Below are positions 6,684 to 32,000 of a stretch of DNA of 32,000 nt, piece by piece. How positions within the stretch are numbered: the stretch's first letter is position 1; every line of letters begins with the position of its first letter. Source of the stretch: Paenibacillus sp. (GTDB taxonomy: Bacteria; Bacillota; Bacilli; Paenibacillales; YIM-B00363); the NCBI GenBank assembly GCA_031181325.1, contig JAPSKX010000033.1:231-32230 (forward strand), read 5' to 3'. The notes under the pieces were generated by a model that was not told the origin of the DNA, ran no database searches, and saw nothing but the letters and a program-made list of their open reading frames with translations. Made by a program: the position numbers and the translations under genes.

Positions 6684-6722
6684 ACCGCGGGAGCCGCCCC
6701 GCTCGTCTCTCGGAACGGCCCA

Positions 6723-18816: not shown

Positions 18817-18860
18817 GTGTTTGACGGAAGGGGATTCCCTTGTCAGACACTTTTTTTTTC
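18817..18860 (+). terminator. Intrinsic terminator (riboswitch expression platform)
   Basis: A 14-bp stem forms between 18817-18832 and 18837-18850 (GTGTTTGAC..AAGGG / CCCTTGTCAGACAC) with a 4-nt loop, followed by nine T. Confidence 0.8.
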
Positions 18861-18883
18861 ATGCACAGAGAGGGGATATGACC

Positions 18884-19534: not shown

Positions 19535-19564
19535 TGTTCTGATGGAGCCGCAAAAAAAATAGCC

Positions 19565-19978
19565 CTACAAATACTCGCTCATCTCCGCCGGGATGCCCAA
19601 GCGGACGAGATATTGCTCCGCCGTCTCCCCTTCCCCCGGAGACGTCCCGTGCGACAACAGCTTCAGGGCGAATCGGTTCGCCTGACGTTCGAGCTTGCCG
19701 GGGCGGAACAACGTCTGCCCTTCGATGAAGTAATAGCCGATCCCCTTGTGCAGGCGATCGTGGCCGAGCTCGTGCGCGCAGACGAATCGCTGCCACTCCT
19801 CGGACAAGTTCGAGCCGATCACGATGAATCGTCTGCGCAGTTTCCGGAAATACAGGCCTCTCGTCTCTTCGCCGAGATCGCGGTAACGGACATGGATGCC
19901 GAGCGCCTCCGCGATGCGGAACGGGCAGTTGGTCTTGTAGCGTCTCGTCAGCAAGCGAATCGTATCGTCCATTGGCAT
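19565..19978 (-). CDS. ImmA/IrrE family metallopeptidase (anti-repressor protease)
   Basis: The HEXXH motif is CAHELGHDRLH, in the typical ImmA context (PFRIAEALGIHVRY...FIVIGSNLSEEWQRFV). The start is uncertain: ATG 19978 or 19972 follow AGGGG, and the track's TTG at 20050 would overlap the XRE stop. Confidence 0.8.
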   Translation of the reverse strand: MPMDDTIRLLTRRYKTNCPFRIAEALGIHVRYRDLGEETRGLYFRKLRRRFIVIGSNLSEEWQRFVCAHELGHDRLHKGIGYYFIEGQTLFRPGKLERQANRFALKLLSHGTSPGEGETAEQYLVRLGIPAEMSEYL

Positions 19979-20046
19979 GTCCCCTATAACGTTGCGCCGC
20001 TCTCGATGCAAGCGGCTCTTCCTCCGCCGGAAGCGGCGCCCGGGCG

Positions 20047-20460
20047 TCAACGCTCGGGCGGCTTTTTGCGTTTATTCATCATTTTCGCCTCCCAGAACAA
20101 TCCTGTCAATACGTCCTGCACCCGCTGCTTGTCTTCTTCCGTCAGCGGGACCCCGTCGAACATAATCTCCTCTTCCTCCAGCATCTTCCTCAGATCGCGC
20201 TTGTCCCGGGAAGAAGCCCATTCCGGCGTCTCCTGCGCGCGGATCGGCGAAGGATCCTCCGTGCGCCCGAGCAAATAATCCGACGTCGTATGCAGGAGAT
20301 CCGCGATCTTCGCCAGCGTATCGGCCGGCGGCGTCGCGACGTCCCGTTCGTAATTGGAGAAATTCGCCCGATTCATCCCGAGCCGTTCGGCCATGCCGTC
20401 TTGCGTAAACCCGTGCTTCGCGCGCAGCGCCTTGATTCGTTGCCCCGTCGTCGTTCCCAT
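20047..20460 (-). CDS. XRE-family HTH repressor (ImmR/Xre-like)
   Basis: The N-terminal HTH_3 reads GQRIKALRAKHGFTQDGMAERLGMNRANFSNYERDVATPPADTLAKIADLLHTTSDYLLG. The RBS is GGAGG. It forms an operon with the ImmA-like gene. Confidence 0.9.
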   Translation of the reverse strand: MGTTTGQRIKALRAKHGFTQDGMAERLGMNRANFSNYERDVATPPADTLAKIADLLHTTSDYLLGRTEDPSPIRAQETPEWASSRDKRDLRKMLEEEEIMFDGVPLTEEDKQRVQDVLTGLFWEAKMMNKRKKPPER

Positions 20461-20493
20461 AGCCGCCTCCAGACCGTAAACTACATTTGCACG

Positions 20494-20523
20494 TTGCGTA
20501 AATATGATTTACTGTGCTATAGT
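20494..20523 (+). promoter_or_regulatory. Rightward sigma-A type promoter (towards the sigma-like gene)
   Basis: TTGCGT (20494-99), an 18-nt spacer and an extended -10 TGcTATAGT (20515-23). Confidence 0.55.
20498..20512. promoter_or_regulatory. Operator O1, perfect 6-3-6 inverted repeat GTAAAT-ATG-ATTTAC
   Basis: Read directly. It overlaps the -35 and spacer of the rightward promoter. A degenerate copy GTAAAC-TAC-ATTTGC lies at 20476-20490. Confidence 0.6.
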
Positions 20524-20536
20524 GTCTCTACGAGAA

Positions 20537-20551
20537 GTAAATTTAATTTAC
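20537..20551. promoter_or_regulatory. Operator O2, perfect 6-3-6 inverted repeat GTAAAT-TTA-ATTTAC
   Basis: Read directly. It lies between the two -10 boxes, over both predicted transcription starts. A degenerate copy GTTATT-TTC-ATTTAC lies at 20566-20580. Confidence 0.6.
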
Positions 20552-20555
20552 ACAG

Positions 20556-20584
20556 ATTATACATTGTTATTTTCATTTACGCAA
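20556..20584 (-). promoter_or_regulatory. Leftward sigma-A type promoter (towards the XRE/ImmA operon)
   Basis: On the reverse strand: TTGCGT (20584-79), a 17-nt spacer and TATAAT (20561-56). Confidence 0.6.
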
Positions 20585-20603
20585 CGGGAGGCGGGGTTAT
20601 TTT

Positions 20604-21227
20604 ATGAAATACGAACATGTCGTCGTCGAACAGCTGCGCGGATACGGTCGAATGCTGGCGAGGTTGAAGGTGCTTCAGGCGACCCCGGTCGGGAACGGGA
20701 TGCGGCTCAGTCACGTCAGCGGAGACGATAAGCTGCAGGAGCTGCACCGGAAGCTGAGGGGCATGCCTTCGAAGCTGTATTTAACGAAGCGGGAGCAGGA
20801 AGTAGAGGCGGCCGCGCGCACGTATTTGAAGTCGTACCCGCTCGGCACGAAGGCGCAGCTGCGCGAGGCGAAGCTGCTCATCGGGGAGACGGCGTACGAC
20901 CATGCGCTGCTGCGGGAGCTGACGACCGGCATCCAAGCGGTGCTCGAGGCGCGCGTCGGCACGGCGGAGGGCATCGACGGGGTGCTGGAGCGATTGGCCG
21001 AAATTCAAGATATCGAGCAAGAGAAGGCGCGCATCGACGAAGCGCTTGCCGCGCTGGAAGAGTACAAGGCTACATACAGCCGGCTCCTGCGCCTCCGTTA
21101 TATCGAAGGGAGAGCGGTGGAGGACGTAGCGGACGAGCTGTGCGTCTCGCGGCGCACGTTCGAGCGGTGGCGGCCGCAGGCGGTGCGGGAATACGCGAAC
21201 CTCGTGGGGTTCGGTTACTTAAGTTGA
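20604..21227 (+). CDS. Sigma-70 region-4-containing late-gene activator (Xpf / phage sigma-like)
   Basis: 207 aa with a GGGAGG RBS. The C-terminus YSRLLRLRYIEGRAVEDVADELCVSRRTFERWRPQAVREYANLVG looks like sigma-70 region 4 / DUF1492-type phage regulators. Its position is equivalent to xpf in PBSX. Confidence 0.65.
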   Translation: MKYEHVVVEQLRGYGRMLARLKVLQATPVGNGMRLSHVSGDDKLQELHRKLRGMPSKLYLTKREQEVEAAARTYLKSYPLGTKAQLREAKLLIGETAYDHALLRELTTGIQAVLEARVGTAEGIDGVLERLAEIQDIEQEKARIDEALAALEEYKATYSRLLRLRYIEGRAVEDVADELCVSRRTFERWRPQAVREYANLVGFGYLS

Positions 21228-21232
21228 AGCGG

Positions 21233-21266
21233 GGCGGAGATCCGTTGGGATCTTCGCCTCGTTTTC
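21233..21266 (+). terminator. Intrinsic terminator after the sigma-like gene
   Basis: GGCGGAGATCC / GGATCTTCGCC forms an 11-bp stem (one G-U pair) with loop GTTG, followed by TCGTTTTC. Confidence 0.7.
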
Positions 21267-21309
21267 TATATTGTGGAATTAATGGCGGATGAATGGCGGT
21301 TCGTTGGCG

Positions 21310-21338
21310 TTCCGAGCCCGGTTTTTCCGTGTTACTAT
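21310..21338 (+). promoter_or_regulatory. Candidate promoter of the tail-operon leader
   Basis: Weak -35 TTCCGA (21310-15), a 17-nt spacer and an extended -10 TGtTACTAT (21330-38). It is preceded by a direct repeat AATGGCGG at 21281-88 and 21292-99. This call is speculative. Confidence 0.3.
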
Positions 21339-21367
21339 GATATCGTCAAGACAATAGGCAAGAGCGC

Positions 21368-21404
21368 AAGACGACGGCCGGAAGCGGCGGGTCGTCTTTT
21401 TTTT
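21368..21404 (+). terminator. Strong intrinsic terminator inside the leader, 69 nt upstream of the first tail gene
   Basis: AAGACGAC (21368-75) pairs with GTCGTCTT (21391-98), and 3 further inner GC pairs form. Eight T residues follow. Confidence 0.75.
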
Positions 21405-21472
21405 GCGTGGCTTGACGGAGAGGAGGCGAGGGCGATGCTCGGACACAGTTTGGAAAAGGGGAGGCGGCGACG

Positions 21473-21904
21473 ATGACCGTCGCATGGAACGACCTTCGCG
21501 GTGCGGTGATCGCGCGGCTCGCGGCGAGGCACCCGGACGTCGTCGTCTCGGGCGAGACGGACGAGCCGGCGCCCGCCGAGGCGCGCTGCTTCGTGCGGCT
21601 CGCTTCCGCGGCGCAGGCGCGGCTGACGGGGAACCGGTACCGGCGCACGGCCGCGTTCGAGGTGCGTTACGCGGCGCCGGGGGCGACGCCCGAGGCGCTG
21701 CACGGCATGGCCGAAGCGTTGTACGACGATCTGGAGCGCGTCGAGCTGCCGGGCGACGGTCGGTCGCTGCGCGGCGACGGCCTCGGGCACGAGATCGTCG
21801 AGGGGGCGCTTCGCTTCACGGCGAGCTACGCGTTCGACGTCGTTCGCTCGCGGATCGAGGCGCCGAAGATGGGACGGCTGGAACAGGAGGGGTATCTGGT
21901 ATGA
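21473..21904 (+). CDS. Tail-completion / tail-terminator-like protein (XkdJ position)
   Basis: 143 aa with a GGGGAGG RBS. It lies directly upstream of the small ORF and the sheath gene, as xkdJ does in PBSX. The assignment rests on position and size only. Confidence 0.55.
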   Translation: MTVAWNDLRGAVIARLAARHPDVVVSGETDEPAPAEARCFVRLASAAQARLTGNRYRRTAAFEVRYAAPGATPEALHGMAEALYDDLERVELPGDGRSLRGDGLGHEIVEGALRFTASYAFDVVRSRIEAPKMGRLEQEGYLV

Positions 21905-22080
21905 ACGAGCGGGAGAACGCGGGTGCGCCGGTCTTCGCGAAGGCGCAGCTGCTCGCATCGACACGGTATTCGGGCGTCGAGAAGGACGTCCTGCGCGCGC
22001 TGCTGCCCGACGGGGCGTCGGCGACGCACGAACAGGCGGCGCGGCTGCTGCGCCAATTTCAAAACATGGAGGTTCGATAG
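21901..22080 (+). CDS. Small hypothetical protein (59 aa; XkzB position)
   Basis: MNERENAGAPVFAKAQLLASTRYSGVEKDVLRALLPDGASATHEQAARLLRQFQNMEVR. Its start overlaps the previous stop as ATGA, and it ends 2 nt before the sheath start. It sits within a longer spurious track ORF (21403-22080). Confidence 0.5.
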   Translation: MNERENAGAPVFAKAQLLASTRYSGVEKDVLRALLPDGASATHEQAARLLRQFQNMEVR

Positions 22081-22082
22081 AT

Positions 22083-23399
22083 ATGGCAGGAGGCACATGG
22101 ACGACGCAAAACAAGGTGAGACCGGGGGTCTACGTGAACTTCGACAGCGCGCCGACGACGCTCGGCGCGCTCGGGGAGCGCGGGGTCGCTTCCGTCGCGC
22201 TGCCGCTGAGCTGGGGGGCGCCGCAGACGGTGCTCGCGATTCAGGCGGGCGAGGACGTGAAGGAGCGCCTCGGGTACGATTTGAGCGCGCCGCAGCTGCG
22301 GCTCGTGCGCGAGGCGCTGAAGCGGGCTCGCACGTTGCTGTTGTATCGGCTGAACGCGGGGACGAAAGCCGCGGTCACGCAGGGCGGCCTGACGGCGACC
22401 GCGAAGTACGGCGGCGTCCGGGGGGACGACCTGACGATCGTCGTCCGGACGAACGTCGACGAGGAGACGTTGTTCGACGTCGTGACGTACTTGGACGACG
22501 AGGTCGTCGATACGCAGACGGTCGCCTTGCTTGAGGAGCTCGTCGCTAACGCGTGGGTCGACTTCGGCGGCACCGGCGCGCCGACGACGACGGCCGGCGC
22601 GCGGCTCGTCGGCGGGGCGGACGGCACGGTCGCGAACGGCGACCACACCGCGTACCTCGCGGCGATCGAGCTGCAGGACTTCCAGGCGCTGGCGCTCGTG
22701 TCCGACGACGCGACGCTCAAGGGAATTTACGCGAGCTTCGCGCGACGGCTGCGCGAGGACGAAGGGCGCAAAATCCAAGTCGTCGTTGCGGGATACCCGT
22801 TGGCGGATTACGAAGGCGTCATCAGCGTCAAGAACGGCGTGAAGCTGGCGGGCGGCGCGACGATCCCGGCGAGGGAGGCGACCGTCTGGGTGGCTGCGGC
22901 GACGGCGGCGGCCGGCGCGAACGAGTCGCTTACGTACCGCGCGTACGACGGCGCCGTCGACGTCGACGAGCGGTACCCGAACACGCAGATCGAAGCGGCG
23001 CTGAACGCCGGCGAGTTCGTGTTCGTCCCGAGCCAAGGGCGCGCCGTCGTGGAGCAGGACATTAACTCCTTCACGAGCTTTGGGCCGGGGAAGGGGAAGC
23101 ATTTTCGGAAAAATCGAGCGCTTCGGGTGTTGGACGGGCTCGCGAACGACTGGAAACGCATCTTCGAGACGTATTACATCGGCAAGGCGAACAACGACGC
23201 GGACGGGCGGAACTTGTTCCGGAAGGAATGCGCCAAGGTCGTCGAGTCGTATCAGGGGCTGGGCGCGGTGCAAAACTTCGATGCGCAGACGGATCTGCTC
23301 GTGCTGCCGGGCGCGGAGTCTGACGCGGTCGTCGTGGAGGCGCATATTCAACCGGTCGACGCGATCGAGAAAATTTACATGAAAGTGAAGGTGGGCTAA
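22083..23399 (+). CDS. Contractile phage tail sheath protein (XkdK-like)
   Basis: 438 aa. The N-terminus MAGGTWTTQNKVRPGVYVNF is the hallmark start of PBSX/SPP-type sheath proteins. The size fits. Confidence 0.9.
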   Translation: MAGGTWTTQNKVRPGVYVNFDSAPTTLGALGERGVASVALPLSWGAPQTVLAIQAGEDVKERLGYDLSAPQLRLVREALKRARTLLLYRLNAGTKAAVTQGGLTATAKYGGVRGDDLTIVVRTNVDEETLFDVVTYLDDEVVDTQTVALLEELVANAWVDFGGTGAPTTTAGARLVGGADGTVANGDHTAYLAAIELQDFQALALVSDDATLKGIYASFARRLREDEGRKIQVVVAGYPLADYEGVISVKNGVKLAGGATIPAREATVWVAAATAAAGANESLTYRAYDGAVDVDERYPNTQIEAALNAGEFVFVPSQGRAVVEQDINSFTSFGPGKGKHFRKNRALRVLDGLANDWKRIFETYYIGKANNDADGRNLFRKECAKVVESYQGLGAVQNFDAQTDLLVLPGAESDAVVVEAHIQPVDAIEKIYMKVKVG

Positions 23400-23401
23400 C
23401 G

Positions 23402-23866
23402 ATGGCATACTTGCGAGCGGGCGACACGATTTCCGGCCAAGAGGGGCGCGCGTACGCCACGATCGGCGGAGAGAACCACGAGATGTTCTACGTGAAGAAC
23501 ATTCGGGCGACGGCGGAGAAGCAGAAGGCCGAGGTGAAGACGCTGGGCCGCCGCGGCGTGCAGCATAAGGCGACGGGCTGGAGCGGCACCGGCGAGATGA
23601 CGATCTACTACGTCACGTCGAAGTTCCGGGAACTGATGCTGAAGTACATCAAGGACGGCGTCGACACGTACTTCGACATTACGATCACGAACGAGGACCC
23701 GTCGTCGTCGATCGGCGCGCAGACAGTGACGCTGAAGGGCGTCAACCTGAACGAGGTCGTCATGGCGGCGCTCGACACGGAATCGGAGGCGCTCGAGGAG
23801 GACGTCGCCTTCACGTGGGAAGACATCGACATGTCGGCGACGTTCGTCGATCCGGCGCTGGGATAA
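23402..23866 (+). CDS. Phage tail tube protein (XkdM-like)
   Basis: 154 aa, starting immediately after the sheath gene. DTISGQEGRAYATIGG...EVKTLGRRGVQHKATGWSGTGEMTIYYVTS is typical of XkdM-type tube proteins. Confidence 0.85.
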   Translation: MAYLRAGDTISGQEGRAYATIGGENHEMFYVKNIRATAEKQKAEVKTLGRRGVQHKATGWSGTGEMTIYYVTSKFRELMLKYIKDGVDTYFDITITNEDPSSSIGAQTVTLKGVNLNEVVMAALDTESEALEEDVAFTWEDIDMSATFVDPALG

Positions 23867-23925
23867 ACGGGACAGCGGGCGTGAGGCGAACGGCCTCCCG
23901 CGAACAGGGGTCCGGCGCGTGAATC

Positions 23926-24051
23926 GGAAAAGCGCCCGCTTATTCCCGCTTTAGCCGGGGAAACCGGGCATTGGACGGGAAAACCTCCGTTCTGGTTCGC
24001 CGAATGTCGCGGTTATCGCGAAAATCCGGTGAATGGACTGGAGGTTTTCCC
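23926..24051. repeat. Repeat family copies in the tube-chaperone spacer (core GGRAAANCCTCC and its complement)
   Basis: GGGAAAACCTCC (23977-88) and GGAGGTTTTCCC (24040-51) form a perfect 12-bp inverted repeat. A degenerate copy GGAAAAGCGCCCGCTTAT lies at 23926-43. Confidence 0.8.
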
Positions 24052-24219
24052 TTTCATCTTGCGAAATCCGCCAGATTTTTCCGTTCAGGGGTGTCCGCGA
24101 GTAGCATGATGCGGCAGTTTGTTTTTGCTCAGGTCGTTACTCGCGGGAGTCCGCTGCGCTTCTTTGGGCGCATGCAAGACAACGAGCAGGTACATTCGAA
24201 CCTATGGAGGGTGCATGAA

Positions 24220-24642
24220 ATGAGCGATTTAAGCGTATTTTTCGCGCAAAACGCCGTAGCGGAGACGACGGAAGCCGTCGTCGTCTCCCCGCGGTTCCGC
24301 GATGCGGCGGGGGAGCCGGTCGCGTGGAAGCTCCGCAGCATGACGGAGGAAGAGAACGAGACGTGCCGCAAGGCGGCGACGAAGCATGTGAAAGGCAAGA
24401 ACGGCATGCGCGTGCCGGAGACGAACGCCGACGAATACATGGCGAACCTCGTCGCGGCGAGCGTCGCGTTCCCGAACCTGAAGGACGCCGAGCTGCAGAA
24501 GTCGTACGGCGTCATGGGCGCGGGGCCGCTGCTGAAGAAGATGCTGCTGCCCGGCGAGTATGCGCTGCTCATTCAGAAGGTGCAGGAGCTGAACGGCTTC
24601 GACCGCGACATGAACGAGCTCGTGGATGAGGTAAAAAACTAA
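24220..24642 (+). CDS. Tail assembly chaperone (XkdN-like), 0-frame product
   Basis: The start is ATG 24220 (MSDLSVFFAQNAV...), 8 nt after GGAGGG. The track start at 23971 has no RBS and crosses the repeat-rich spacer. The gene lies between the tube and tape-measure genes. Confidence 0.8.
   Translation: MSDLSVFFAQNAVAETTEAVVVSPRFRDAAGEPVAWKLRSMTEEENETCRKAATKHVKGKNGMRVPETNADEYMANLVAASVAFPNLKDAELQKSYGVMGAGPLLKKMLLPGEYALLIQKVQELNGFDRDMNELVDEVKN
24633..24639 (+). promoter_or_regulatory. Programmed -1 ribosomal frameshift slippery heptamer A-AAA-AAC
   Basis: An X-XXY-YYZ heptamer lies in the 0 frame (GTA AAA AAC TAA) one codon before the stop. It is followed after 7 nt by the hairpin GGAGGGCG (24647-54) / CGCCCTCC (24680-87). 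Confidence 0.7.
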
Positions 24643-24815: not shown

Positions 24816-24844
24816 AGGCGCCCTGGGCCCTACAGTCCGGAGGA

Positions 24845-25028
24845 ATTAGACGGAAATCCTCCCGCTAATGTCGGGGAATGCGGCTTTGCGGCGCACTTAA
24901 ATGGAAATGCTCCTACCAATTACGGGGGAATGCGTCTTTGACAGGTGGAGCGCGCCGATTAAGATGGAGGGTTTCCCGCTAAACTTCGATTTCTGGCGGT
25001 TTGGAGCCGAATTAGTGGGAGGATTTCC
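24845..25028. repeat. Repeat family copies in the chaperone-tape measure spacer
   Basis: There are tandem units of about 45 nt at 24845-88 and 24896-940 with a 51-nt period. Complementary cores lie at 24966-77 (GGAGGGTTTCCC) and 25017-28 (GGGAGGATTTCC). The stretch 24852-69 can pair with 25011-28 over 18 bp, including one G-U. Confidence 0.8.
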
Positions 25029-25082
25029 TTGTAGCAATGAGGAAGCCGAAGGCCGCAGGTGAAGGAAAGGGGGGGAGAGGCT

Positions 25083-27077
25083 ATGGCGGATATATCCTTG
25101 TCGGCGAATGTGCAGGCGATTAACTCGGTTGTTCAACAGTTCGTGAAGTTATCGCAATCGAATCATTTCGTCAATCGCACGATGATCCGTTTCAATCGAA
25201 CGAACATCGACAGCCGGCGGATCATTATTAATTACACGAATGTGCAACAACAATTTATTGCCGGTCAAGCGGAGGCCAAAAAAGCGATAGAAGGTACGAC
25301 CGCAGCGCAGGACAAGCAAAATAAATCCATTAGTTATGCTCAAGAGCTGCTAACAGCCGCTCGAGCAAAATTAAAGGACGCCTTCTCTCCGGAGTCCGTA
25401 TTGGCCGGAGCGGGAAGAGCGCTGGCTGGCCTCGGAGCTCTTGGGGTCGCCGCCGTGCATGGGGCAATGGAACAGGACGCTATGAAGCAAAAGTTCGTAG
25501 CCAAGACCGGTGATGAAACTGTCGGGAGCGCAATGTTCACCATCTTCAAACAGGATGCCCAAGCGAAAGGGCAGAATGTAATGGATGCGGTGAATGGGGC
25601 CTATTCCTTCATGTCGGTGACACATGACGTAGAAGATATAAAAAAATTAAACCGATTTTCGGATCAACTAGCAATGTTCGATCCGACTGGCAAAGGGAAG
25701 CCCGAAGCGGTATCTGCGATTCAGGCGGCCATACGTGGAGATACGACCGGATTAGCCAAGCAATACAACATTTCCGAGGGTCTGCTGAAAGAATATAATA
25801 TCGCTGCACTAGGAAGGGCAGCACCGGGAAGCGCTGAGAGTATGGATACATTTCTAGAACAGTTCGATGAGCTGCTAGAGCGAAGTCGTATGGGAGAGGC
25901 TGCTTATTCAGCGATGCTGGCGTCCCCTGCGAAACAGGCGGAGCAACTCGGGAATCGAGTGCGAAACTCGCTGTCCGACGCGGGAACGGGGGCGCTTGCG
26001 GCAATCGGACCCATGCTCGTCACGTTGAACGAGGCATTCCAAGCAGGCGCGTTCCAACCGTTCTTTGATGCACTCAACATTTCGCTGACCCTTCTCACAT
26101 TTGGTATTTCCGGTGTCGTCAATGCCGCGCTATGGTTGTGGGACGTATTCATGACGACACTGCCGGTCGTTGGACCGATTCTTCTGGGAATCATCGCAAC
26201 ATTTGCGATTTACCGTGGGATCCTGTTTGCGGTAACTGCAGCTCAATGGATTATGAATGCCGCTGTTACTGCATTCCGCGTCATCTCGCTTCTTGCGGCC
26301 GCGGCGCAATGGGGATTTAATTTTGCGATGATCGCTAACCCAATTGGATTAATTATTGCTTTGATCCTCGGCTTGGTCGCAGCGTTATTCGGACTTGCGC
26401 TTTCGTTCCAGCCCGTGCGAGAGATCATGGCGAACACGTTCCGCGCGATCGGCGATATCGTAGTCTTCGTCGCAGGACTCATCATCGATACGATTGCCCT
26501 AATTGTGAATACCATAGTCGATACAATGAACAGCATCCTGGATATCGGAAACGCGATTAACAAAGCAATAGGATGGGCATTCGGAATCGAAGGAATAGTA
26601 GAAGTGAAAATTCCGAACTGGGATGCCTCAGACTTCAAGTCCCAAGTACAGGACGGAATCAAAGGCGCCTCGGACGCGATCGCCGACGGAACGGAAAACT
26701 TTAGCATGGAAAACATGAAAGAAAAGTTCGGATTAAACGGGAATAAGGAGTCTCCCGAAGATGTGCTAGAGCGGTATAAGCCGCCGACACTGCCAACGAA
26801 TCCAGAGCCTGCAACTGTCGGGGCAACGGGCTCTGGATTCTCCGCGGCGCCGCCCGCCCCCGCCCGCGACACCCCCGACCTGCCGGAAGAAAACCTCGTC
26901 ATGATGCGGGATCTGGCGGAACGGGACAGCATCCGCAGCTTCGTGACGATGAATCCGACGGTGCAGGTGACGACGGGCAACATTATGCAGGAGGTCGACG
27001 TGAATACGATGATCGCGAAGATCGAGTCGGCGATGGAGCGGGAGATCGCCATGTCGGCGGAGAGGGCGATCCTATGA
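25083..27077 (+). CDS. Tail tape measure protein (XkdO position)
   Basis: 664 aa from ATG 25083, which follows GGGGGGGAGAGG. The N-terminal half is alpha-helical and Ala/Gln/Lys-rich. The central block is strongly hydrophobic (ALWLWDVFMTTLPVVGPILLGIIATFAIY...LIIALILGLVAALFGLAL), typical of tape measure proteins. Its position also fits. Confidence 0.85.
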   Translation: MADISLSANVQAINSVVQQFVKLSQSNHFVNRTMIRFNRTNIDSRRIIINYTNVQQQFIAGQAEAKKAIEGTTAAQDKQNKSISYAQELLTAARAKLKDAFSPESVLAGAGRALAGLGALGVAAVHGAMEQDAMKQKFVAKTGDETVGSAMFTIFKQDAQAKGQNVMDAVNGAYSFMSVTHDVEDIKKLNRFSDQLAMFDPTGKGKPEAVSAIQAAIRGDTTGLAKQYNISEGLLKEYNIAALGRAAPGSAESMDTFLEQFDELLERSRMGEAAYSAMLASPAKQAEQLGNRVRNSLSDAGTGALAAIGPMLVTLNEAFQAGAFQPFFDALNISLTLLTFGISGVVNAALWLWDVFMTTLPVVGPILLGIIATFAIYRGILFAVTAAQWIMNAAVTAFRVISLLAAAAQWGFNFAMIANPIGLIIALILGLVAALFGLALSFQPVREIMANTFRAIGDIVVFVAGLIIDTIALIVNTIVDTMNSILDIGNAINKAIGWAFGIEGIVEVKIPNWDASDFKSQVQDGIKGASDAIADGTENFSMENMKEKFGLNGNKESPEDVLERYKPPTLPTNPEPATVGATGSGFSAAPPAPARDTPDLPEENLVMMRDLAERDSIRSFVTMNPTVQVTTGNIMQEVDVNTMIAKIESAMEREIAMSAERAIL

Positions 27078-27742
27078 CCGATTACTACCATATGTCGCTG
27101 AGCTTTAACAGGCAAGCGGAAGCGATCATTTTCCCCGTGCTCCCGGCATCGATTGAACTCAAACGCAAGGGGCAAAGCAAGACGTACGACATCGTGGGGC
27201 TCGGCCAAGTGAGCGTTATCCATGCGCGGGAGCTGGCGGAGATCAGCTTCGAAAGCATGTTCCCGGCCGGACAGTTTCCATATCAAAGCGACGTGCGCGA
27301 TCGAGGGCTCGTATATAACGAACCGATCAAATACGTGAATTATATTGCGAAATGGCAAGACAGCAGGCACCCTTGCCGTTTCATTCTTTCGGGGGAGAGG
27401 CTTCAGCTGCCGATCAATCTCCCGGTGAGCATCGAGCAATTCGACCGATGGGAGGAGGGCGGCGCCCCCGGCGACATCCATTTCCGGATCACGCTCAAGG
27501 AGTACGTATTTCATGCGCCGCGCAAGGCGGGTGCGGATCCCGCGACAGCGGCCGCCCGCCCCGACGAGCGGGTCCGGCCGGATACGTATACGATGAAGCC
27601 CGGGGACACGCTCTACGGCATCGCCCGCAAAATCTACGGCGACAGCAACCGTTGGCCCGACATTCAAAAGTTGAACGGCATCACGGACGCGAAGCTTCGC
27701 AGTCTGCCGGTCGGTCTCGTGCTTCGCCTGCCGAAGGAGTGA
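27074..27742 (+). CDS. LysM-domain tail protein (XkdP-like)
   Basis: 222 aa, with its start overlapping the tape-measure stop as ATGA. The C-terminal LysM reads YTMKPGDTLYGIARKIYGDSNRWPDIQKLNGI...LPVGLVLRLP. Confidence 0.85.
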   Translation: MTDYYHMSLSFNRQAEAIIFPVLPASIELKRKGQSKTYDIVGLGQVSVIHARELAEISFESMFPAGQFPYQSDVRDRGLVYNEPIKYVNYIAKWQDSRHPCRFILSGERLQLPINLPVSIEQFDRWEEGGAPGDIHFRITLKEYVFHAPRKAGADPATAAARPDERVRPDTYTMKPGDTLYGIARKIYGDSNRWPDIQKLNGITDAKLRSLPVGLVLRLPKE

Positions 27743-27748
27743 GCGAAG

Positions 27749-28720
27749 ATGCTGGAAGTCTTGCTTGATAAGATTGACGGGACCGTGTGGGACGTCTCGA
27801 CGGTCGTGACGAGCGTGGCCTGGAAGACGAGCCGCATCGGGAAGGCGGGCAGTCTCGATCTTACGTTCGTGCGGAATGCGCTTTTCCAATCGAAGGACTT
27901 TACGGTGGAAAACGGCGACTTGCTCCGCGTGCGCAAGGACGGAGTGAAGTTCTTCTTCGGCTACGTGTTCTCGATTGACCGAAGCGAAGACGACACGGTG
28001 AGGCTTGTCGCATACGATCAGCTGCGGTACCTCATGGCGAACGAGTCCTACGTGTTCAAGAACGCGACGGCGGCCGACGTCATTCAGCGCATCGCGAAAG
28101 ACTTCGAGCTGAAGACGGGCGCGCTCGCGGCGCCTCGCCACCGCATTCCGCAGCTGCTGCAGGACAATAAGAAGCTGATGGACATGATCGTGCGAGCGCT
28201 GGATCTAACCTTGATCGCGGACAAGAAGATTTATGTGCTGTACGACGACTTCGGCGCCTTGACGCTTCGGGATGCAGAGGAGATGACGTTCGATTGGTCG
28301 ATCGGCGAAGGAAGCGGGATGGTCAGCTATTCGCATTCCGCTTCGATCGATTCGGAGACGTACAACCGCGTCAAGCTCGTGCAGGACAACAAGAACACCG
28401 GCAAGCGGGACGTATACATCGCCCAAGACAGCCGGACGATCGACCGGTGGGGGCGGCTGCAGCTGTACGAAGTCGCGGACGAAGGGATGAACCGGGCGCA
28501 GCTGGAGACGTTCGCGATGCAATTGTTGGAATATCGCAATCGGGAAAGCCGGACGTTGAAGGTAGACGCTTTGGGCGACATGAACGTTCGGGCCGGCGGG
28601 TATGCTCACCTCCGCATCGACGCGCTCGGGATCGACCAACGGATGTTGGTCGAGGAGTGCACCCATGAGTTCAACGGGGAAGCGCATCTGATGAAATTGG
28701 ATTTGAAGGTGGTGGACTGA
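27749..28720 (+). CDS. XkdQ/YqbQ-like tail hub protein (gpD / late-control-D-like)
   Basis: 323 aa with an AAGGAG RBS. The size, the position after the LysM protein and MLEVLLDKIDGTVWDVS...VAWKTSRIGKAGSLDLTF fit the XkdQ family. Confidence 0.75.
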   Translation: MLEVLLDKIDGTVWDVSTVVTSVAWKTSRIGKAGSLDLTFVRNALFQSKDFTVENGDLLRVRKDGVKFFFGYVFSIDRSEDDTVRLVAYDQLRYLMANESYVFKNATAADVIQRIAKDFELKTGALAAPRHRIPQLLQDNKKLMDMIVRALDLTLIADKKIYVLYDDFGALTLRDAEEMTFDWSIGEGSGMVSYSHSASIDSETYNRVKLVQDNKNTGKRDVYIAQDSRTIDRWGRLQLYEVADEGMNRAQLETFAMQLLEYRNRESRTLKVDALGDMNVRAGGYAHLRIDALGIDQRMLVEECTHEFNGEAHLMKLDLKVVD

Positions 28721-28721
28721 C

Positions 28722-28985
28722 ATGTCGATCGTGGACAAAATCCGGCGGATCAGCGCCGGCACGACGGAGGCGGGAGATCCCGTCGCGGTACTGCAGGGCA
28801 CGGTGGAAGGAACGAATCCTCTGACGGTGAGGCTGGATCAACGGCTTTCGCTGACGGAGGATTTTTTCGTAATGGGCGCCTCGGTCGCGGAGCGCGGGTT
28901 CGAGCTTGGAGACCGATTGATCCTGCTGCGCGTGCAGGGCGGGCAACGTTTCGTCATCTTGGATAAAACGGGGGAATGGGCATGA
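28722..28985 (+). CDS. Small baseplate spike/plug-like protein (XkdR position, DUF2577-like)
   Basis: 87 aa, tightly coupled, starting 1 nt after the previous stop. The sequence LQGTVEGTNPLTVRLDQRLSLTEDFF fits my memory of DUF2577. Confidence 0.65.
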   Translation: MSIVDKIRRISAGTTEAGDPVAVLQGTVEGTNPLTVRLDQRLSLTEDFFVMGASVAERGFELGDRLILLRVQGGQRFVILDKTGEWA

Positions 28986-29377
28986 TTCCGAAACGAACCG
29001 CTCCGCTGGTGACGAATGTTCCCGATCGGCCGCAGACGAGCCGAACGTATCGGCTGGATCCGGAACGCGGACGGATCGCAGGCATCGTCGACGGTACGGA
29101 CGCGGTGCGGCAATTCGTCTATAAGGCTCTGTCGACCGAGCGATTCGCGCATGCGATTTACAGCGGCGCTTTCGGTCACGAGATCGCGCCTGGACTGGAT
29201 CGCAACATCGCTGTCGCAGAGCTTCCCCGATGGGTCGAAGAAGCTTTGCTCCAAGACGACAGAATTACAGCCATCCGTGATATGGAGCTGAGCGCGGAAG
29301 GCGATCAGATGAACGTTCGCTTCACTGTTGTCTCCGTGTTCGGCGAATGGGAGGAGAGGAGGAACTTCGATGTTTGA
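28982..29377 (+). CDS. Baseplate protein (XkdS position, DUF2634 / gp25-W-like)
   Basis: 131 aa from the ATG that overlaps the previous stop as ATGA; the track gives 28976, which is also possible. The sequence TYRLDPERGRIAGIVDGTDAVRQFVYKALSTERFAHAIYS is typical. Confidence 0.7.
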   Translation: MIPKRTAPLVTNVPDRPQTSRTYRLDPERGRIAGIVDGTDAVRQFVYKALSTERFAHAIYSGAFGHEIAPGLDRNIAVAELPRWVEEALLQDDRITAIRDMELSAEGDQMNVRFTVVSVFGEWEERRNFDV

Positions 29378-30467
29378 AGATCGTACGTTTGAAAATGTTC
29401 TCCGCGACATGCTCACCGCCGTCCCCTCCGAAGTCGACAAACGCGAGGGCAGCGTGTTGTACGACGCGCTTGCGCCGGCGGCGATGCAATTGGCGGGGGC
29501 GTATGCGGAGCTTGATCGCTTATATCGCTTGTCGCATGCGCAGACGTCCAGCGGAGAAGCGCTGCGTCTGCGAGGCGAGGACTTCGGCATACAGCCTCAG
29601 CCGGCCTCGGCGGCGGTGCGGCGCGGCGTATTTTCCGGCGAGAACGGCGTGCCGTTCGAAGTCGAGATCGGGAGCCGATTCGCGGTCGGAGGCTTGATTT
29701 TCGCGGTGCAGGAGAAGGTGGATGCCGGCGTCTTTAAACTTATCTGCGAAACCGCCGGCGCCGCCGGGAACATTCCGTCCGGCGCGATGCTGCCGCTCGA
29801 CTATGTGGACGGTTTGGCGTCGGCGACGATGGACGAAGTTATCGTTCCCGGAGAAGACGAAGAGACGGACGAGGCGTATCGGGCGCGGTTCTTCGCGCAG
29901 GTACGGACGCCGCCGACAAGCGGCAACCGTTCCGCATACCGGAAGTGGGCGCTCGAGGTTCAAGGCGTAGGAGACGCATATGTGCTCCCCGCTTGGGCAG
30001 GTTCGAATACGGTGAAGGTAAGCGTGATCGGCACGGACCGGTTGCCTGCGGGCCCTGGCATCGTGGAAGCGGTGAAGGATTACATCGACCCTCGGACCGG
30101 TCTTGGGGAGGGAATGGGCGAAGGCGCGGCTCCGGCCGGCGCGGTCGTCACTGTCGTTGCGGCGGATGCCGTGCCTGTCGACGTGACGGCGACGATTACG
30201 CTCAACGGGTCGCGGACTTTGGAACAAGTCGTCGCCGATTTCGGGGCCGCGTTGCGAGGTCATCTCGCCGCCGTCGCGGACGACGCCTTCGCACGCTACG
30301 ACGCCGACCGCAGCATCAAGTTTGCGCGGATCGGCACGCTTCTTCTGGATACGCCGGGCGTGGCCGACTATGCGGCAGGCAGCCTGCTCGTGAACGGGGC
30401 GCAGGCGAACGTGCTCGTTCCGCCGGGGGCCGTCGCCGTGAAGAGGACGGTGACGCTGAATGAGTGA
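29370..30467 (+). CDS. Baseplate J-like protein (XkdT-like)
   Basis: 365 aa from ATG 29370, which follows GGAGGAGAGGAGG. MFEDRTFENVLRDMLTAVPSEVDKREGSVLYDALAPAAMQLAGAY...RLRGEDFGI matches baseplate J N-termini. Confidence 0.85.
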   Translation: MFEDRTFENVLRDMLTAVPSEVDKREGSVLYDALAPAAMQLAGAYAELDRLYRLSHAQTSSGEALRLRGEDFGIQPQPASAAVRRGVFSGENGVPFEVEIGSRFAVGGLIFAVQEKVDAGVFKLICETAGAAGNIPSGAMLPLDYVDGLASATMDEVIVPGEDEETDEAYRARFFAQVRTPPTSGNRSAYRKWALEVQGVGDAYVLPAWAGSNTVKVSVIGTDRLPAGPGIVEAVKDYIDPRTGLGEGMGEGAAPAGAVVTVVAADAVPVDVTATITLNGSRTLEQVVADFGAALRGHLAAVADDAFARYDADRSIKFARIGTLLLDTPGVADYAAGSLLVNGAQANVLVPPGAVAVKRTVTLNE

Positions 30468-31041
30468 CTTTCCGATTACGACGCGTAGCGGGACGACTAT
30501 GCTCGCCGAGTTGCCTAGCTTCTATGAGAACGTGCTGGAGATGCGCGTGCTCGTCGAGGCGGGGGGCATTCCATTCGATCGGTTGTGGGACGACGCGGAG
30601 GACGTCTTCCGGCAACGATTCGTCAGCACCGCCACATGGGGCTTGCCGGCGTGGGAAGCGGAGCTCGGCATCGTTCCGCCCGCCGGGCAACCGATCGAGC
30701 AGCGGCGCGCCGTCGTCCGCTCGAAGATGCGCGGCTACGGGAAGTTTACGGGGCGGTTGCTGAAGAGCGTGGCGGAGGCGTATGACAACGGTCAGATCGA
30801 AGTGTCTTTCGACCCGCCTTCGAGTACGTTCACCGTTCGCTTTGTCTCGACGCTTGGCGCGCCGCCGAATATCAGTGACCTCCAACGGGCGACCGAGGAG
30901 ATCGTTCCGGCTCATTTGCTTGTTGCCTACGCATATCGGTATCTATTGGTTGAGCAGCTAGACGGCATGCCGATCAACGACCTCGAAGGTCGTCCGCTGA
31001 CTGACTTTTCGCCGGTCTTACCGGTACTTAAGGAGGAATGA
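30460..31041 (+). CDS. Baseplate wedge / tail-fibre-connector protein (XkdU position, DUF2313-like)
   Basis: 193 aa, overlapping the previous gene by 8 nt. LPSFYENVLEMRVLVEAGGIPFDRLWDDAEDVFRQRFVSTATWGLPAWEAELGI is typical of the YmfQ/XkdU family. Confidence 0.75.
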   Translation: MSDFPITTRSGTTMLAELPSFYENVLEMRVLVEAGGIPFDRLWDDAEDVFRQRFVSTATWGLPAWEAELGIVPPAGQPIEQRRAVVRSKMRGYGKFTGRLLKSVAEAYDNGQIEVSFDPPSSTFTVRFVSTLGAPPNISDLQRATEEIVPAHLLVAYAYRYLLVEQLDGMPINDLEGRPLTDFSPVLPVLKEE

Positions 31042-31044
31042 ACA

Positions 31045-32000
31045 TTGCCTAGCAATACGGAACACCTGGGGCTCGTTAAAATCAATCCGGCCACCGACGG
31101 CAATCAAGCATTTAGTATTGAGACGCATCTTAATGATAACTGGGACAAGCTGGACGCCGAAGCGAAGCGCGTTGCCGAGAAGGTCGATACCGCCCAGCCT
31201 CTGCCGATTAACGTCGTCCCGGGCGTAAACATCGTTGAAGCGTTCGAAAATGCGGTTGCAACATTTGACTCGATGGAAGGCGACGACCTTTTGAATATCC
31301 TGGGTCCGCCTGGAAACTTCGAATCCCTTGACGGTTGGTCATACGCAGGCGCTGCGGTACAACTTACAGCGACATATAAGAGGTCTGGTTCAACTGCTCT
31401 CGCCACCTTTCCAACCGCTTCAGCGCCTTCTTATGTCTACAGGGATTACGACATAAAACTGGATACGGGAAAGAGCTATGTTTTGCTGGCTTGGGCGTAT
31501 ATTGAGGGCGGGACGACTGGGATCGGGAGTCAGCGGGTCACAATTTACGATAAGGGCGATGTGGAAAACAGCCGATATAGTGTAAGCGTTAATGGTTCCA
31601 AACGGGGACAGTGGCAATTGCTGAGGATGAAAATACCGACAGGGAACACGGTCACAACGAACGGTTTCCGCTTACTTGTCGGTGCAGGAAACGTAGGCGA
31701 CAGCACGGTCATTTATGATAGCGTTCGTTTGTACGAAGTAACGAGCGCCCAGGCCGCCGAATTCGACAACTTAACAGAAGCGCAAGCTGATGCCCGGTAC
31801 CCGTATACCGAAGGCTTCGCAGGCGTCTTTAATCCGTATGTCATCGCGCCGGGGAAGAACTTGTTTAACCTTGCGGCGTACGTAAATCATTACGGAGCAA
31901 GTTATTTCACGATGGACGACGCCGTTACACTTCGAATAATAAACTACTTTAGCGCCGTGACATTTCCGATGAAACTAGCTCCGAATACGGAGTACACTGT
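31045..32000 (+). CDS. Tail fibre / receptor-binding protein, N-terminal 318 aa (continues beyond the window)
   Basis: This ORF is not in the track because it has no stop. The TTG start at 31045 lies 8 nt after AAGGAGG. MPSNTEHLGLVKINPATDGNQAFSIETHLNDNWDKLDA is the conserved N-terminus of Firmicute phage tail fibres. A jelly-roll/CBM-like segment follows (GNFESLDGWSYAG...VRLYEV). Confidence 0.75.
   Translation, partial: MPSNTEHLGLVKINPATDGNQAFSIETHLNDNWDKLDAEAKRVAEKVDTAQPLPINVVPGVNIVEAFENAVATFDSMEGDDLLNILGPPGNFESLDGWSYAGAAVQLTATYKRSGSTALATFPTASAPSYVYRDYDIKLDTGKSYVLLAWAYIEGGTTGIGSQRVTIYDKGDVENSRYSVSVNGSKRGQWQLLRMKIPTGNTVTTNGFRLLVGAGNVGDSTVIYDSVRLYEVTSAQAAEFDNLTEAQADARYPYTEGFAGVFNPYVIAPGKNLFNLAAYVNHYGASYFTMDDAVTLRIINYFSAVTFPMKLAPNTEYT

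Follow-up and report, generated by a model that had tools for sequence, protein, structure and literature searches.

Tail-only particles and the Paenibacillus cluster

PBSX of Bacillus subtilis, whose tail is encoded by the xkd genes, carries upstream a repressor, an ImmA-type protein and a sigma-like late regulator, as does the Paenibacillus cluster described here. PBSX also encodes terminase, portal, protease and capsid, and the DNA fragments that it packages are 13 kb long. Tail-only killing particles are already known as a kind from diffocin, monocin, the PBSX lineage and the tail-like bacteriocin of Brevibacillus laterosporus. Diffocin is an SOS-induced, headless contractile tail bacteriocin of the R type from the Gram-positive Clostridioides difficile (PMC6088184, PDB 8v3t). 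The switch that controls Listeria monocin combines a cI-like repressor with a DUF955/ImmA-type metalloprotease and is divergent from the lytic genes (PMC6872733). The Brevibacillus laterosporus locus holds PBSX-like xkdK, xkdN, a tail protein, xkdT, xkdU, a holin and an amidase; a positive control factor of the Xpf type adjoins the sheath gene, and mitomycin C induction, polysheath-like structures and sister-strain killing have been reported for it (PMC9406221). Late activators of the Ltr superfamily include RinA, ArpU, LtrA (Sigma70_r4), LtrB (DUF1492) and LtrC (PMC3753634).

The analysis concerned a window of 32,000 nucleotides from a Paenibacillus sp. contig, whose right-hand part holds a contractile tail cluster (Table 1). 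Its tail genes match PBSX in order and families, including the XkdN frameshift, but none of the genes that separate regulator and terminator gene in PBSX is present. Judged from its genes, the cluster is a credible R-type tailocin locus. We consider it probable that it is a chromosomally fixed, headless derivative of a PBSX/Jimmervirus-type myophage tail module, forming a tailocin locus in three parts. Because an intact tail set with its own switch stands there without head or packaging genes, a tail-only killing particle is the most likely product.

The known systems resemble the cluster to different degrees. Diffocin shares the sheath, tube, LysM-type protein, gp25-like initiator, baseplate J and fibre (PMC6088184), but the similarity is distant: the sheath of 354 aa (CD1363), against 438 aa in the window, matches with E 1e-13 over the C-terminal half, and the tube with E 1e-9. 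Monocin has the same three-module design, its modules being switch, tail and lysis, and is likewise chromosomally fixed and vertically inherited (PMC6872733); it differs in being F-type and non-contractile, with tail genes not homologous to those of the window and with early genes lmaD and lmaC unlike an Ltr-type activator. Brevibacillus laterosporus belongs to a related genus of spore-forming Bacillales. Its sheath is reported to be only ~22% similar to Brevibacillus phage sheaths (PMC9406221), against 54% identity between the sheath of the window and that of Brevibacillus phage Osiris, which indicates that Brevibacillus laterosporus carries a different tail lineage, as compared through the published description. 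The closest complete phages are Osiris, Jimmer and Abouo (Jimmervirus, Brevibacillus) and Paenibacillus prophages. They share the order terminator, small ORF, sheath, tube, XkdN and tape measure as well as the frameshift site; unlike the window, they have head and connector genes before the terminator, and replication and lysogeny modules. Compared with the other solved sheaths, DSY3957 (3hxl, E 8e-164) and the Brevibacillus phage proteins stand nearer to that of the window.

Table 1. Features of the tail cluster, with positions in the window (aa, amino acids; TMP, tape measure protein)
Feature	Position	Strand	Evidence or detail
ImmA-type metalloprotease, putative anti-repressor	19565-19978	-	HELGH motif; Peptidase_M78 E 3.2e-16; phrog_87 metallo-protease
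XRE/cI-like repressor, co-oriented with and upstream of ImmA	20047-20460	-	HTH_19/HTH_3; phrog_8/phrog_4; RstR-type repressor
Divergent switch region, four operator-like palindromes	20476-20580		GTAAAT-N3-ATTTAC at 20476, 20498, 20537, 20566
Putative late-gene activator (Ltr superfamily, LtrA/LtrB type)	20604-21227	+	Sigma-region-4-like C-terminal domain; profile and AF2 model
Intrinsic terminator closing the activator gene	21226-21265	+	18-pair stem, then T-run
Three 7-nt direct repeats, candidate activator binding sites	21282-21310	+	ATGGCGG, ATGGCGG, TTGGCGT; exact 11-nt spacing
Late-promoter core, extended -10 type	21327-21346	+	CCGTGyTAnnATGnTAnnnT; conservation
Promoter-proximal hairpin and T8 terminator, late leader	21368-21404	+	RNAfold hairpin, then eight T
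Tail terminator (XkdJ position), 143 aa, first structural gene	21473-21904	+	PF20765 E 7e-18
Conserved small ORF (xkzB position), 59 aa	21901-22080	+	phrog_966 E 5e-12; homologue in Osiris and relatives
Contractile tail sheath, 438 aa	22083-23399	+	Four sheath Pfam domains
Tail tube	23402-23866	+	DUF2001 E 6e-47; PBSX XkdM structure 2guj E 1e-34
Non-coding insert, tube/chaperone junction, MITE-like	23867-24219		Internal inverted repeat; read from sequence
Tail assembly chaperone, XkdN-type	24220-24642; -1 extension to 24815	+	Phage_TAC_5 E 3e-43
Second non-coding insert	24816-25058		23-nt terminal inverted repeats 24847-24869 / 25011-25033
TMP, 664 aa	25083-27077	+	phrog_1068 E 1e-53; gene call in Logan contig L039
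LysM tail protein (XkdP type)	27074-27742	+	LysM; phrog_380 E 2e-56
Baseplate hub protein (XkdQ/YqbQ type)	27749-28720	+	PF24032 YQBQ E 1e-115
DUF2577 protein (XkdR type)	28722-28985	+	PF10844 E 1.6e-13; phrog_579
Sheath initiator (gp25-like, XkdS type)	28976-29377	+	PF10934 E 1e-21
Baseplate J (XkdT type)	29370-30467	+	PF04865 E 2e-58; exact product on L039
Mu gp48-like baseplate wedge (XkdU/YmfQ type)	30460-31041	+	PF10076 E 3e-25; phrog_521 tail protein
Tail fibre / receptor-binding protein, N-terminal 318 aa in window	31045-32000	+	phrog_13022 E 2e-27; weak CBM_4_9 match

Regulatory region and tail operon

The first-pass annotation had read the cluster as an ImmA/ImmR-type switch followed by a tail operon in the PBSX order. 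Profile searches recovered every gene it named at the place given, in the order terminator, small ORF, sheath, tube, chaperone, tape measure, LysM, XkdQ/R/S/T/U and fibre. For ImmA the ATG at 19978, and not 20050, is the most likely start; this yields a 137-aa protein, and the orthologues in two related loci (L045, L046) have 135-140 aa. A 30-bp spacing separates ImmA from the adjoining host gene. The operator-like palindrome has four matches in the entire 32 kb, against a chance expectation of 0.35, and all of them fall within the intergenic region of 143 bp. The regulatory and switch region contains no LexA box, so control of the SOS type is proposed by analogy only.

The divergent gene had been called a sigma-region-4 protein. 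The region-4-like domain is present, but in the C-terminal part only: the profile matches are confined to it (Sigma70_ECF 25.8 bits, DUF1492 22.6 bits), and in the AF2 model just residues ~140-200 fit sigma region 4 (rmsd 1.3-2.9 A). Ltr-type late activator is the more fitting name for the protein. Sequence and model together fit membership of that superfamily (PMC3753634). Ltr activators too are small proteins with a sigma-region-4-like or DUF1492 domain, and their genes too lie immediately 5' of a late operon and are followed by a terminator and three 7-nt direct repeats, which the repeats of the cluster match (PMC3753634). Unlike them, the window's activator is predicted to drive a tail-only operon instead of terS. 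P. larvae phage proteins with 45-48% identity to it carry the annotation sigma factor and are sited at the early/late junction. In one prophage (L047) the activator homologue is followed by three small ORFs and then terminase, portal and minor-capsid genes; in phage Bob (L040) it follows the helicase gene at the right-hand end of the linear genome.

Activator and tail genes are exactly 245 bp apart (21228-21472), as first noted, and this gap seems to hold the late cassette: the ATGGCGG repeats and the promoter CCGTGTTACTAT. Phage Bob, L047 and L002 have repeats at this position too, likewise phased at 11 nt but differing in sequence. The promoter core matches the window once, where 0.08 matches would be expected, and it always lies directly past the activator gene, in L001, L002, L004-L007, L009-L011, Bob and L047; it is single-copy per locus, apart from two copies in L001, and L003 and L046 have variant copies at this position. 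A hairpin with a T-run, different in sequence, recurs at the same leader position in L002, L003, the L004 clade, L046 and L047. This late-leader terminator would stop expression of the operon unless read through, and the accessible part of the Ltr description makes no mention of such an extra terminator (PMC3753634).

All 14 structural ORFs are intact, as had been claimed, and of normal length. The tight coupling also claimed is partly borne out: ATGA-type overlaps are real between terminator and 59-aa ORF and between TMP and LysM gene, and overlaps of 8-10 nt join DUF2577 to the sheath initiator, the sheath initiator to Baseplate_J and Baseplate_J to XkdU, but two non-coding inserts interrupt the series. 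The first has no second copy in the window or the compared loci, and the same junction in relatives measures only 4-30 bp; the second is also present in Logan contig L039 and in no other compared locus. Both inserts could lower downstream expression. The chaperone has a canonical -1 slippery site, A_AAA_AAC, at 24633-24639; its -1 extension is conserved in 32 related loci, and both site and extension are kept in relatives and in Osiris. The tail terminator is homologous to the Osiris gene directly 5' of the small ORF and sheath. The window stops inside the fibre gene, and a public contig reaches ~470 bp further, still fibre; in L039 the fibre has at least 475 aa. The fibre N-terminus is conserved in relatives and the remainder diverges. 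GC content is 0.51 in the fibre gene and 0.52-0.53 in the tape measure gene, the latter below its neighbours.

Head genes, flanks and related loci

Osiris carries terS, terL, portal, scaffold, capsid, two adaptors and gp10 directly before the terminator, small ORF and sheath trio, and this 9-kb stretch occupies exactly the place of the window's 245-bp regulatory gap. A search with the Osiris head and connector proteins located them 5' of the terminator in each of 13 related prophage loci and had no match in the window, in L001 or in L003-L011. Profile searches likewise found no head, portal, terminase or head-tail connector genes between the regulator and tail genes, and none of the head, packaging or connector kind in the 19.5 kb left of the cluster; no integrase or replication gene was found. 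The left flank is host DNA, as first described, with a ZTP riboswitch (18741-18820) 5' of a PF03458 membrane protein, and with TatA, GH123, GH35, an ABC sugar transporter and a two-component system.

More than ten Paenibacillus genomes, and Gorillibacterium as well, share the headless layout. ImmA-XRE, activator, terminator and sheath, flanked by host genes, are seen for instance in P. glycinis and Gorillibacterium timonense. Every relative annotated at the right end has one or more fibres, a holin, an endolysin and then host genes; XkdW/XkdX-like ORFs lie between fibre and holin in relatives. Across eight genomes of the P. tyrfis/elgii clade the cluster lies beside the same host gene, the fibre region varies in length, and dN/dS is 0.03-0.13 (sheath, chaperone, XkdQ, Baseplate J), which indicates strong purifying selection. 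Taken with Osiris and the prophages, the headless relatives support the original view of a dedicated tail-only locus and not a DNA-packaging defective prophage.

Competing explanations and a proposed mode of action

Free tails might instead join capsids made elsewhere, by a capsid-only island (cf-PICI-like) or a split PBSX/GTA-like element with distant head genes, giving a DNA-carrying particle and not a bacteriocin. We regard this as unlikely. The tail terminator, a head docking surface, is retained as the first gene; the source contig stops ~1 kb past the window, with the rest of the genome outside the data, and head genes could sit elsewhere under the cluster's activator. P. elgii KM_B45 has both a headless locus (L010) and a related complete prophage (L013), and P. 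humicus keeps a gp10-like connector remnant. Yet the head-joining adaptor and gp10 genes of related phages are absent from the window and ten relatives, the late-promoter core occurs just once per locus, and the arrangement of switch, tail genes and a lysis cassette of their own, at one fixed place among host genes, matches known bacteriocin loci (PMC6872733). It seems equally improbable that the cluster is a functionless remnant of a PBSX-like prophage that lost its head genes recently and has not yet decayed. Such loci do decay, since Paenibacillus sp. UNCCL117 retains the ImmA-XRE-activator trio alone, without tail genes, and both operon inserts are unique to the window's lineage. Intact frames, the conserved frameshift site, and purifying selection with a fixed locus in the best-sampled clade speak against it, and a recent neutral deletion cannot account for one truncation point that several species and two genera have in common while their proteins are 40-66% identical.

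An extracellular contractile injection system of the Afp/PVC/MAC type, delivering a protein toxin into eukaryotic or bacterial cells, is already disfavoured and very improbable. The setting, headless contractile tail genes in a bacterium from soil, would suit it, and the region 3' of the fibre, where cargo genes might lie, is outside the window; but no AAA+ ATPase, Afp16-like tail-cap or toxin gene is present in the window or the annotated parts of relatives, relatives carry holin and endolysin genes, and the proteins fall within the phage XkdK/XkdM/XkdN/YqbQ lineage, with temperate myophages as closest true relatives.

Counting against the R-type tailocin reading, literature searches turned up no experiment that shows such particles, or killing by them, for any Paenibacillus, nor a study of this kind of locus in the bacterial group. 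The novelty first claimed was overstated in view of Listeria monocin and the Brevibacillus laterosporus bacteriocin.

The tailocin would work as follows. The XRE repressor would occupy the four palindromic operators and keep the activator gene silent, until a stress signal leads the co-transcribed metalloprotease to cut it; by likeness to ImmA/ImmR and monocin MpaR, the inducing signal is probably RecA-dependent. The Ltr-type protein may then bind the three phased repeats through its sigma-region-4-like domain and turn on the extended -10 promoter, which lacks a -35. Of the two terminators, the first may shield this promoter from read-through and the second, in its own leader, may keep it tight. 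One long operon would then be expressed, from tail terminator through sheath, tube, frameshifting chaperone, tape measure and baseplate to the fibre, and by analogy with every relative examined we infer that it ends in a holin and an endolysin. Firing of the switch would, we infer, yield DNA-free contractile tails, some 100 nm long by a rule-of-thumb estimate from the 664-aa tape measure. Lysis of the producing cells would release the particles, and the variable fibre may attach them to related strains, which would be killed by puncture of the envelope.

Gene content and edges of the cluster

The stretch from 19565 to 32000 had been described in the first-pass annotation as a headless PBSX-type contractile tail cluster, and each gene identity proposed there was supported when the open reading frames (ORFs) of the window were listed and searched against Pfam and PHROGs profiles. 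A full contractile-tail set is present, with a Pfam or PHROGs match for the terminator, sheath, tube, chaperone, tape measure, hub, gp25-like initiator, baseplate J, wedge and fibre. The tail genes run in the xkdJ-to-xkdV order, as seen from profile searches and a structure match to XkdM. The -1 extension of the chaperone is 58 aa long and is kept in 32 related loci and in the Brevibacillus phage Osiris. ORF listing and profile searches found no integrase, excision or replication genes within 19565-32000.

Features of the window, and positions of the late-promoter cassette in related loci
Feature	Position	Strand	Remarks
Host genes	left 19.5 kb		GH35, AraC-type two-component system, ABC sugar transporter, GH123, TatA
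ZTP (pfl) riboswitch	18741-18820		57.8 bits, directly 5' of PF03458 gene
PF03458 "glycine transporter"/UPF0126 membrane protein	18821-19534		adjoins immA 3' end
ImmA/Peptidase_M78	19565-19978	-	HELGH; profile search
XRE repressor	20047-20460	-	profile search
Activator, 207 aa	20604-21227	+	C-terminus resembles sigma region 4/DUF1492; profile search
Terminator after activator gene	21226-21265
Repeats ATGGCGG, ATGGCGG, TTGGCGT	21282, 21293, 21304		pattern search
Leader hairpin with eight T	21368-21404
Tail shaft genes	after 245-bp gap		PF20765 tail terminator (143 aa), 59-aa phrog_966 ORF, sheath, tube
XkdN-type chaperone, -1 frameshift site	24633-24639		canonical A_AAA_AAC
Distal genes, in order			tape measure, LysM/XkdP, YqbQ/XkdQ, DUF2577, gp25-like sheath initiator, Baseplate J, Mu-gp48/XkdU
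Fibre	starts 31045		continues past window end
Cassette, P. glycinis (L001)	1988 and 2260
Cassette, P. humicus (L002)	1669
Cassette, Paenibacillus locus L003	1777
Cassette, Paenibacillus locus L004	2058
Cassette, locus L046	6817
Cassette, phage Bob (L040)	4676
Cassette, prophage L047	6658

The DNA to the left of the cluster had been taken for host DNA, and these 19.5 kb do carry host genes; head or packaging genes were not found there, nor by PHROGs among the unannotated ORFs. The PF03458 gene marks the left boundary of the element, with a gap of 30 bp between this host gene and the ImmA gene. Two stretches of the flank are low in GC (0.53-0.55, at 1-2400 and 5500-6700), several of the ORFs in them have no Pfam or PHROGs match, and a tRNA-Gly(CCC) gene lies at 620-693 inside a low-GC stretch. 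Both stretches could have been acquired horizontally as a patch of their own, with no relation to the tail cluster.

On the right, public Logan contigs (7.9 kb and 1 kb) added 470 bp beyond the window, all fibre, and an identical XkdU protein lies on an NCBI contig of only 33,017 bp, which makes a break in the assembly at this point probable. After the fibre gene or genes, P. glycinis, P. ginsengihumi and P. oleatilyticus have small ORFs, then a Phage_holin_4_1 holin gene and one for an endolysin (GH25, Amidase_3 or glucosaminidase); in the first two species, host genes come after the lysis cassette. A metagenomic relative (XkdU 69% identical) carries a 930-aa fibre, XkdW-like and XkdX ORFs, a holin, GH25 and then UxaC. 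Among the annotated downstream genes of four relatives there were no head genes. Holin and endolysin genes follow the fibre in loci L001, L003, L004-L011 and L043, and the window ends before that point; by analogy with these relatives, its fibre would likewise be followed by lysis genes.

Two lineage-specific non-coding inserts interrupt the operon, at 23867-24219 (tube/chaperone junction) and 24816-25058 (chaperone/tape-measure junction). The second has 23-nt terminal inverted repeats (24847-24869 and 25011-25033) and, inside them, a direct repeat of 16 nt. At the tube/chaperone junction relatives have only 4-30 bp, and extra ORFs stand at the insert junctions in other loci and in phage Osiris; both junctions appear to be insertion hot spots. 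No other copies of either insert were found in the window or the fetched loci, apart from that of the second insert in locus L039, and the two could not be classed as a repeat family. No Rfam family matched the inserts.

Missing head genes and the layout in related genomes

Osiris carries, in this order, terS, terL, portal, minor head, scaffold, capsid, two adaptors and HK97-gp10, and directly after them come homologues of the window's terminator, small ORF and sheath. This 9-kb head block is replaced in the window by the activator gene and the 245-bp regulatory gap. That head and packaging genes are missing between the regulator and the tail genes had been noted before, and it was borne out: the gap is non-coding and no head homologues were found. 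PHROGs and tblastn searches of the window found no capsid, portal, terminase or connector genes on the left side or at the start of the operon.

The Osiris head and connector proteins, together with connector proteins of two related prophage loci, were searched by tblastn against 38 related loci; in the scan of genome contigs for relatives, the best match had 66% identity. Thirteen loci turned out to be true prophages, with adaptor, gp10, scaffold, capsid or portal homologues 5' of the terminator (one of them is the second locus of P. elgii KM_B45), which indicates that the search is able to detect head genes where they are present. The same tblastn search found no head or connector homologues in the window, in P. 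glycinis or P. ginsengihumi, or in the loci of P. tyrfis, P. elgii, P. tianmuensis, P. oleatilyticus and MZ04-78.2, and P. humicus kept only a gp10-like remnant. As these loci compare, the headless state is a shared and precise truncation at the head-tail boundary. The P. humicus remnant resembles an HK97-gp10 connector and lies at 1887-2177 of its locus, between the activator and sheath genes. No PF20765-type terminator match was recognisable in that headless cluster, and its truncation point seems to differ from that of the other headless loci.

Comparison across related genomes, as the first-pass annotation had proposed, showed that the headless layout recurs in Paenibacillus and Gorillibacterium. 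Gorillibacterium timonense, of another genus, has the identical layout of host genes, ImmA, XRE, divergent activator, PF20765 terminator, small ORF, sheath, tube, chaperone and tape measure. In the P. tyrfis/elgii clade, eight genomes have the cluster beside one and the same host gene (94-100% identity), which comes after the holin and lysin genes. Pairwise dN/dS in this clade was 0.03-0.13 for sheath, chaperone, XkdQ and Baseplate J, and the fibre region from XkdU to holin varied from about 2 to 7 kb. Within this region, loci L004, L006, L007 and L011 have two tandem fibre genes of ~850 aa with an XkdW-like ORF between them, and L005, L009 and L010 have a single shorter fibre set; this is variation of a fibre cassette at an otherwise syntenic locus. 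A fixed locus, low dN/dS and a variable fibre are signatures of an element that has been domesticated and is maintained while its specificity module diversifies, and are not those of a decaying prophage.

GC content is high, 0.59-0.69 over most of the cluster, and the window is Paenibacillus-like. GC falls to 0.51-0.53 at 25001-27000 and 31001-32000, in the tape-measure and fibre genes. XkdQ shows allelic replacement in the P. tyrfis clade, with dS of about 1.7 for some pairs versus ~0.25 for others. Together, the low-GC genes and the XkdQ contrast point to module exchange by recombination.

Loss of the cluster also occurs, as Paenibacillus sp. UNCCL117 (L045, 4856-6663) keeps only the ImmA, XRE and activator trio between host genes. 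Its activator is 58% identical, and neither the late-promoter core nor tail genes follow the trio, which would be what decay has left of a tailocin locus or else a switch put to new use.

The predicted switch, activator and late promoter

The left end of the cluster has the ImmR/ImmA layout: a gene for an HEXXH protease (Peptidase_M78/DUF955) directly 3' of an XRE-HTH repressor gene, both divergent from the controlled genes. Four operator-like palindromes, GTAAAT-N3-ATTTAC, are confined to 20476-20580 in the 143-bp divergent region, and none was found elsewhere in the 32 kb (0.35 expected). The ImmA-type protease would cleave the XRE repressor on a RecA/SOS or other signal, as in ImmA/ImmR and monocin MpaR; the MpaR/ImmA-type switch of monocin serves as the model for this SOS link (PMC6872733), which is drawn here by analogy. 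No LexA box was found in the switch region, and matches across the window were no more than chance. One perfect GAAC-N4-GTTC core was seen at 19527-19540, beyond the 3' end of immA, and was put down to chance. P. glycinis has two tandem copies of the late promoter, separated by a terminator, and both copies have a perfect LexA-type GAAC-N4-GTTC box at the -35 position (GAACTTATGTTC and GAACATACGTTC; L001, 1975-1986 and 2245-2258). In P. glycinis, unlike in the window, the late promoter may therefore be repressed directly by the SOS system. In the P. tyrfis clade a 126-aa minus-strand ORF without a family match lies 5' of the activator gene; it is a candidate for the activator's repressor, and its sequence looks like an antisense artefact.

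The activator had been called sigma-like, which holds for region 4 in its C-terminal part; assignment as a whole sigma factor is unsupported. Only the C-terminal part matched Sigma70_ECF (25.8 bits, cut-off 21.1) and DUF1492 (22.6 bits, cut-off 21.5), and in the AlphaFold model (pLDDT 80) the last ~60 residues match sigma region 4 with an rmsd of 1.3-2.9 A. No profile match, to sigma region 2 or otherwise, was found in residues 1-110, and the whole fold compared poorly with ECF sigmas (E > 0.08, rmsd ~20 A). A bona fide sigma factor of the ECF or group 4-5 kind was therefore set aside, since region 4 alone is supported.

According to PMC3753634, genes of the Ltr superfamily lie just 5' of the late operon and are followed by a terminator, the binding sites are three direct repeats of 7 nt, and the members include LtrA (Sigma70_r4) and LtrB (DUF1492). 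The window likewise has a Sigma70_r4/DUF1492 protein immediately 5' of the late operon, a terminator after its gene, and 7-nt repeats distal to the gene and 5' of the late promoter. Judged from sequence and the predicted structure, the activator and its downstream features fit this superfamily of late activators. The closest homologue, P0002, is 85% identical, and those in P. larvae phages are 45-48% identical. In phage Bob the homologue follows the helicase gene and is found where the linear genome ends on the right; in prophage L047 three small ORFs and then terminase, portal and minor-capsid genes lie downstream of it.

The features after the activator gene form a cassette (21226-21404 in the window) made up of a terminator, ~3-4 locus-specific repeats phased by 11 nt, an invariant core, a leader and, mostly, a second terminator. 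It is common to headless clusters and true phages or prophages, 3' of activator homologues (except in L045, without core). The core, CCGTGyTAnnATGnTAnnnT, is of the extended -10 type and lies 3' of the repeats; the window cassette combines the ATGGCGG repeats with CCGTGTTACTAT. The core occurs once per locus (twice in P. glycinis), always directly after the activator gene, in activator-bearing tailocin-like loci, phage Bob and prophage L047, with close variants in L003 and L046. Repeats of other sequence with the same 11-nt phasing are found in P. humicus, phage Bob and L047. The core is followed by a short leader, which is also conserved. Most loci then have a hairpin rich in GC and ending in a T-run, 25-60 nt downstream of the predicted start site (near 21346-21350 in the window); its position is kept, and its sequence differs between loci. 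No Rfam family matched the leader. We read the cassette as a putative activator-dependent late promoter with a leader terminator.

This terminator may act as a simple attenuator, or Q-like antitermination may be directed at it. In its arrangement the cassette is similar to lambda Q-pR'-tR'. If it also worked that way, Ltr protein bound at the repeats would make RNA polymerase terminator-resistant, and without it the late promoter would yield a short terminated RNA. We consider this mechanism, drawn from the lambda analogy, rather unlikely. If it were true, at least this Ltr branch would be processive antiterminators, and the tailocin would gain a two-lock safety on a lethal operon. The promoter-proximal terminator offers a lead, open to testing, on how late genes are controlled in phages of Gram-positive bacteria.

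Relation to known tailocins

Tailocins are particles that kill within a narrow spectrum, and a swap of the fibre can re-target them. To our knowledge the Gram-positive examples are few: diffocin, monocin, PBSX and one from Brevibacillus. PBSX carries head and packaging genes (xtmA/B, xkdE/F/G) and has small DNA-filled heads. Its tail order is shared by the window, in which these head and packaging genes are not present between the regulator and the tail genes. The tail belongs to the PBSX/XkdK-XkdM lineage (tube versus XkdM, E 1e-34; sheath versus DSY3957, E 8e-164). By sheath, the closest complete phages are the Brevibacillus myophages Osiris, Jimmer and Abouo (54% identity). Diffocin is only distantly related. 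The three-module design of monocin and diffocin is common to the window cluster. An extracellular contractile injection system of the Afp/PVC/MAC type was also considered and rejected, as AAA+ ATPase, tail cap and toxin cargo genes were found neither in the window nor among the annotated genes of its relatives. The tailocin interpretation stands as a reading of the genome, and the cluster quite probably encodes a functional R-type tailocin.

The claim of novelty was overstated. Literature searches found no paper on a Paenibacillus tailocin. The kind is already known: Brevibacillus laterosporus has a partly characterised PBSX-like tail bacteriocin with an Xpf-type regulator, whose sheath is much more divergent (PMC9406221). 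A 2026 preprint reports a computational screen of Paenibacillales for phage-tail-like elements.

Together with its relatives, this locus points to a headless tail system that is conserved across Paenibacillus and Gorillibacterium and that selection maintains. The control circuit of the system is compact and easily read, running from repressor and protease to the Ltr activator and the late promoter. The system also shows, as a clean natural example, how a myophage is reduced to a tailocin precisely where head and tail meet. P. larvae phages share the activator, and the system would be a tractable chassis for bacteriocins engineered to act on Paenibacillaceae such as the relatives of P. larvae, a pathogen of bees.
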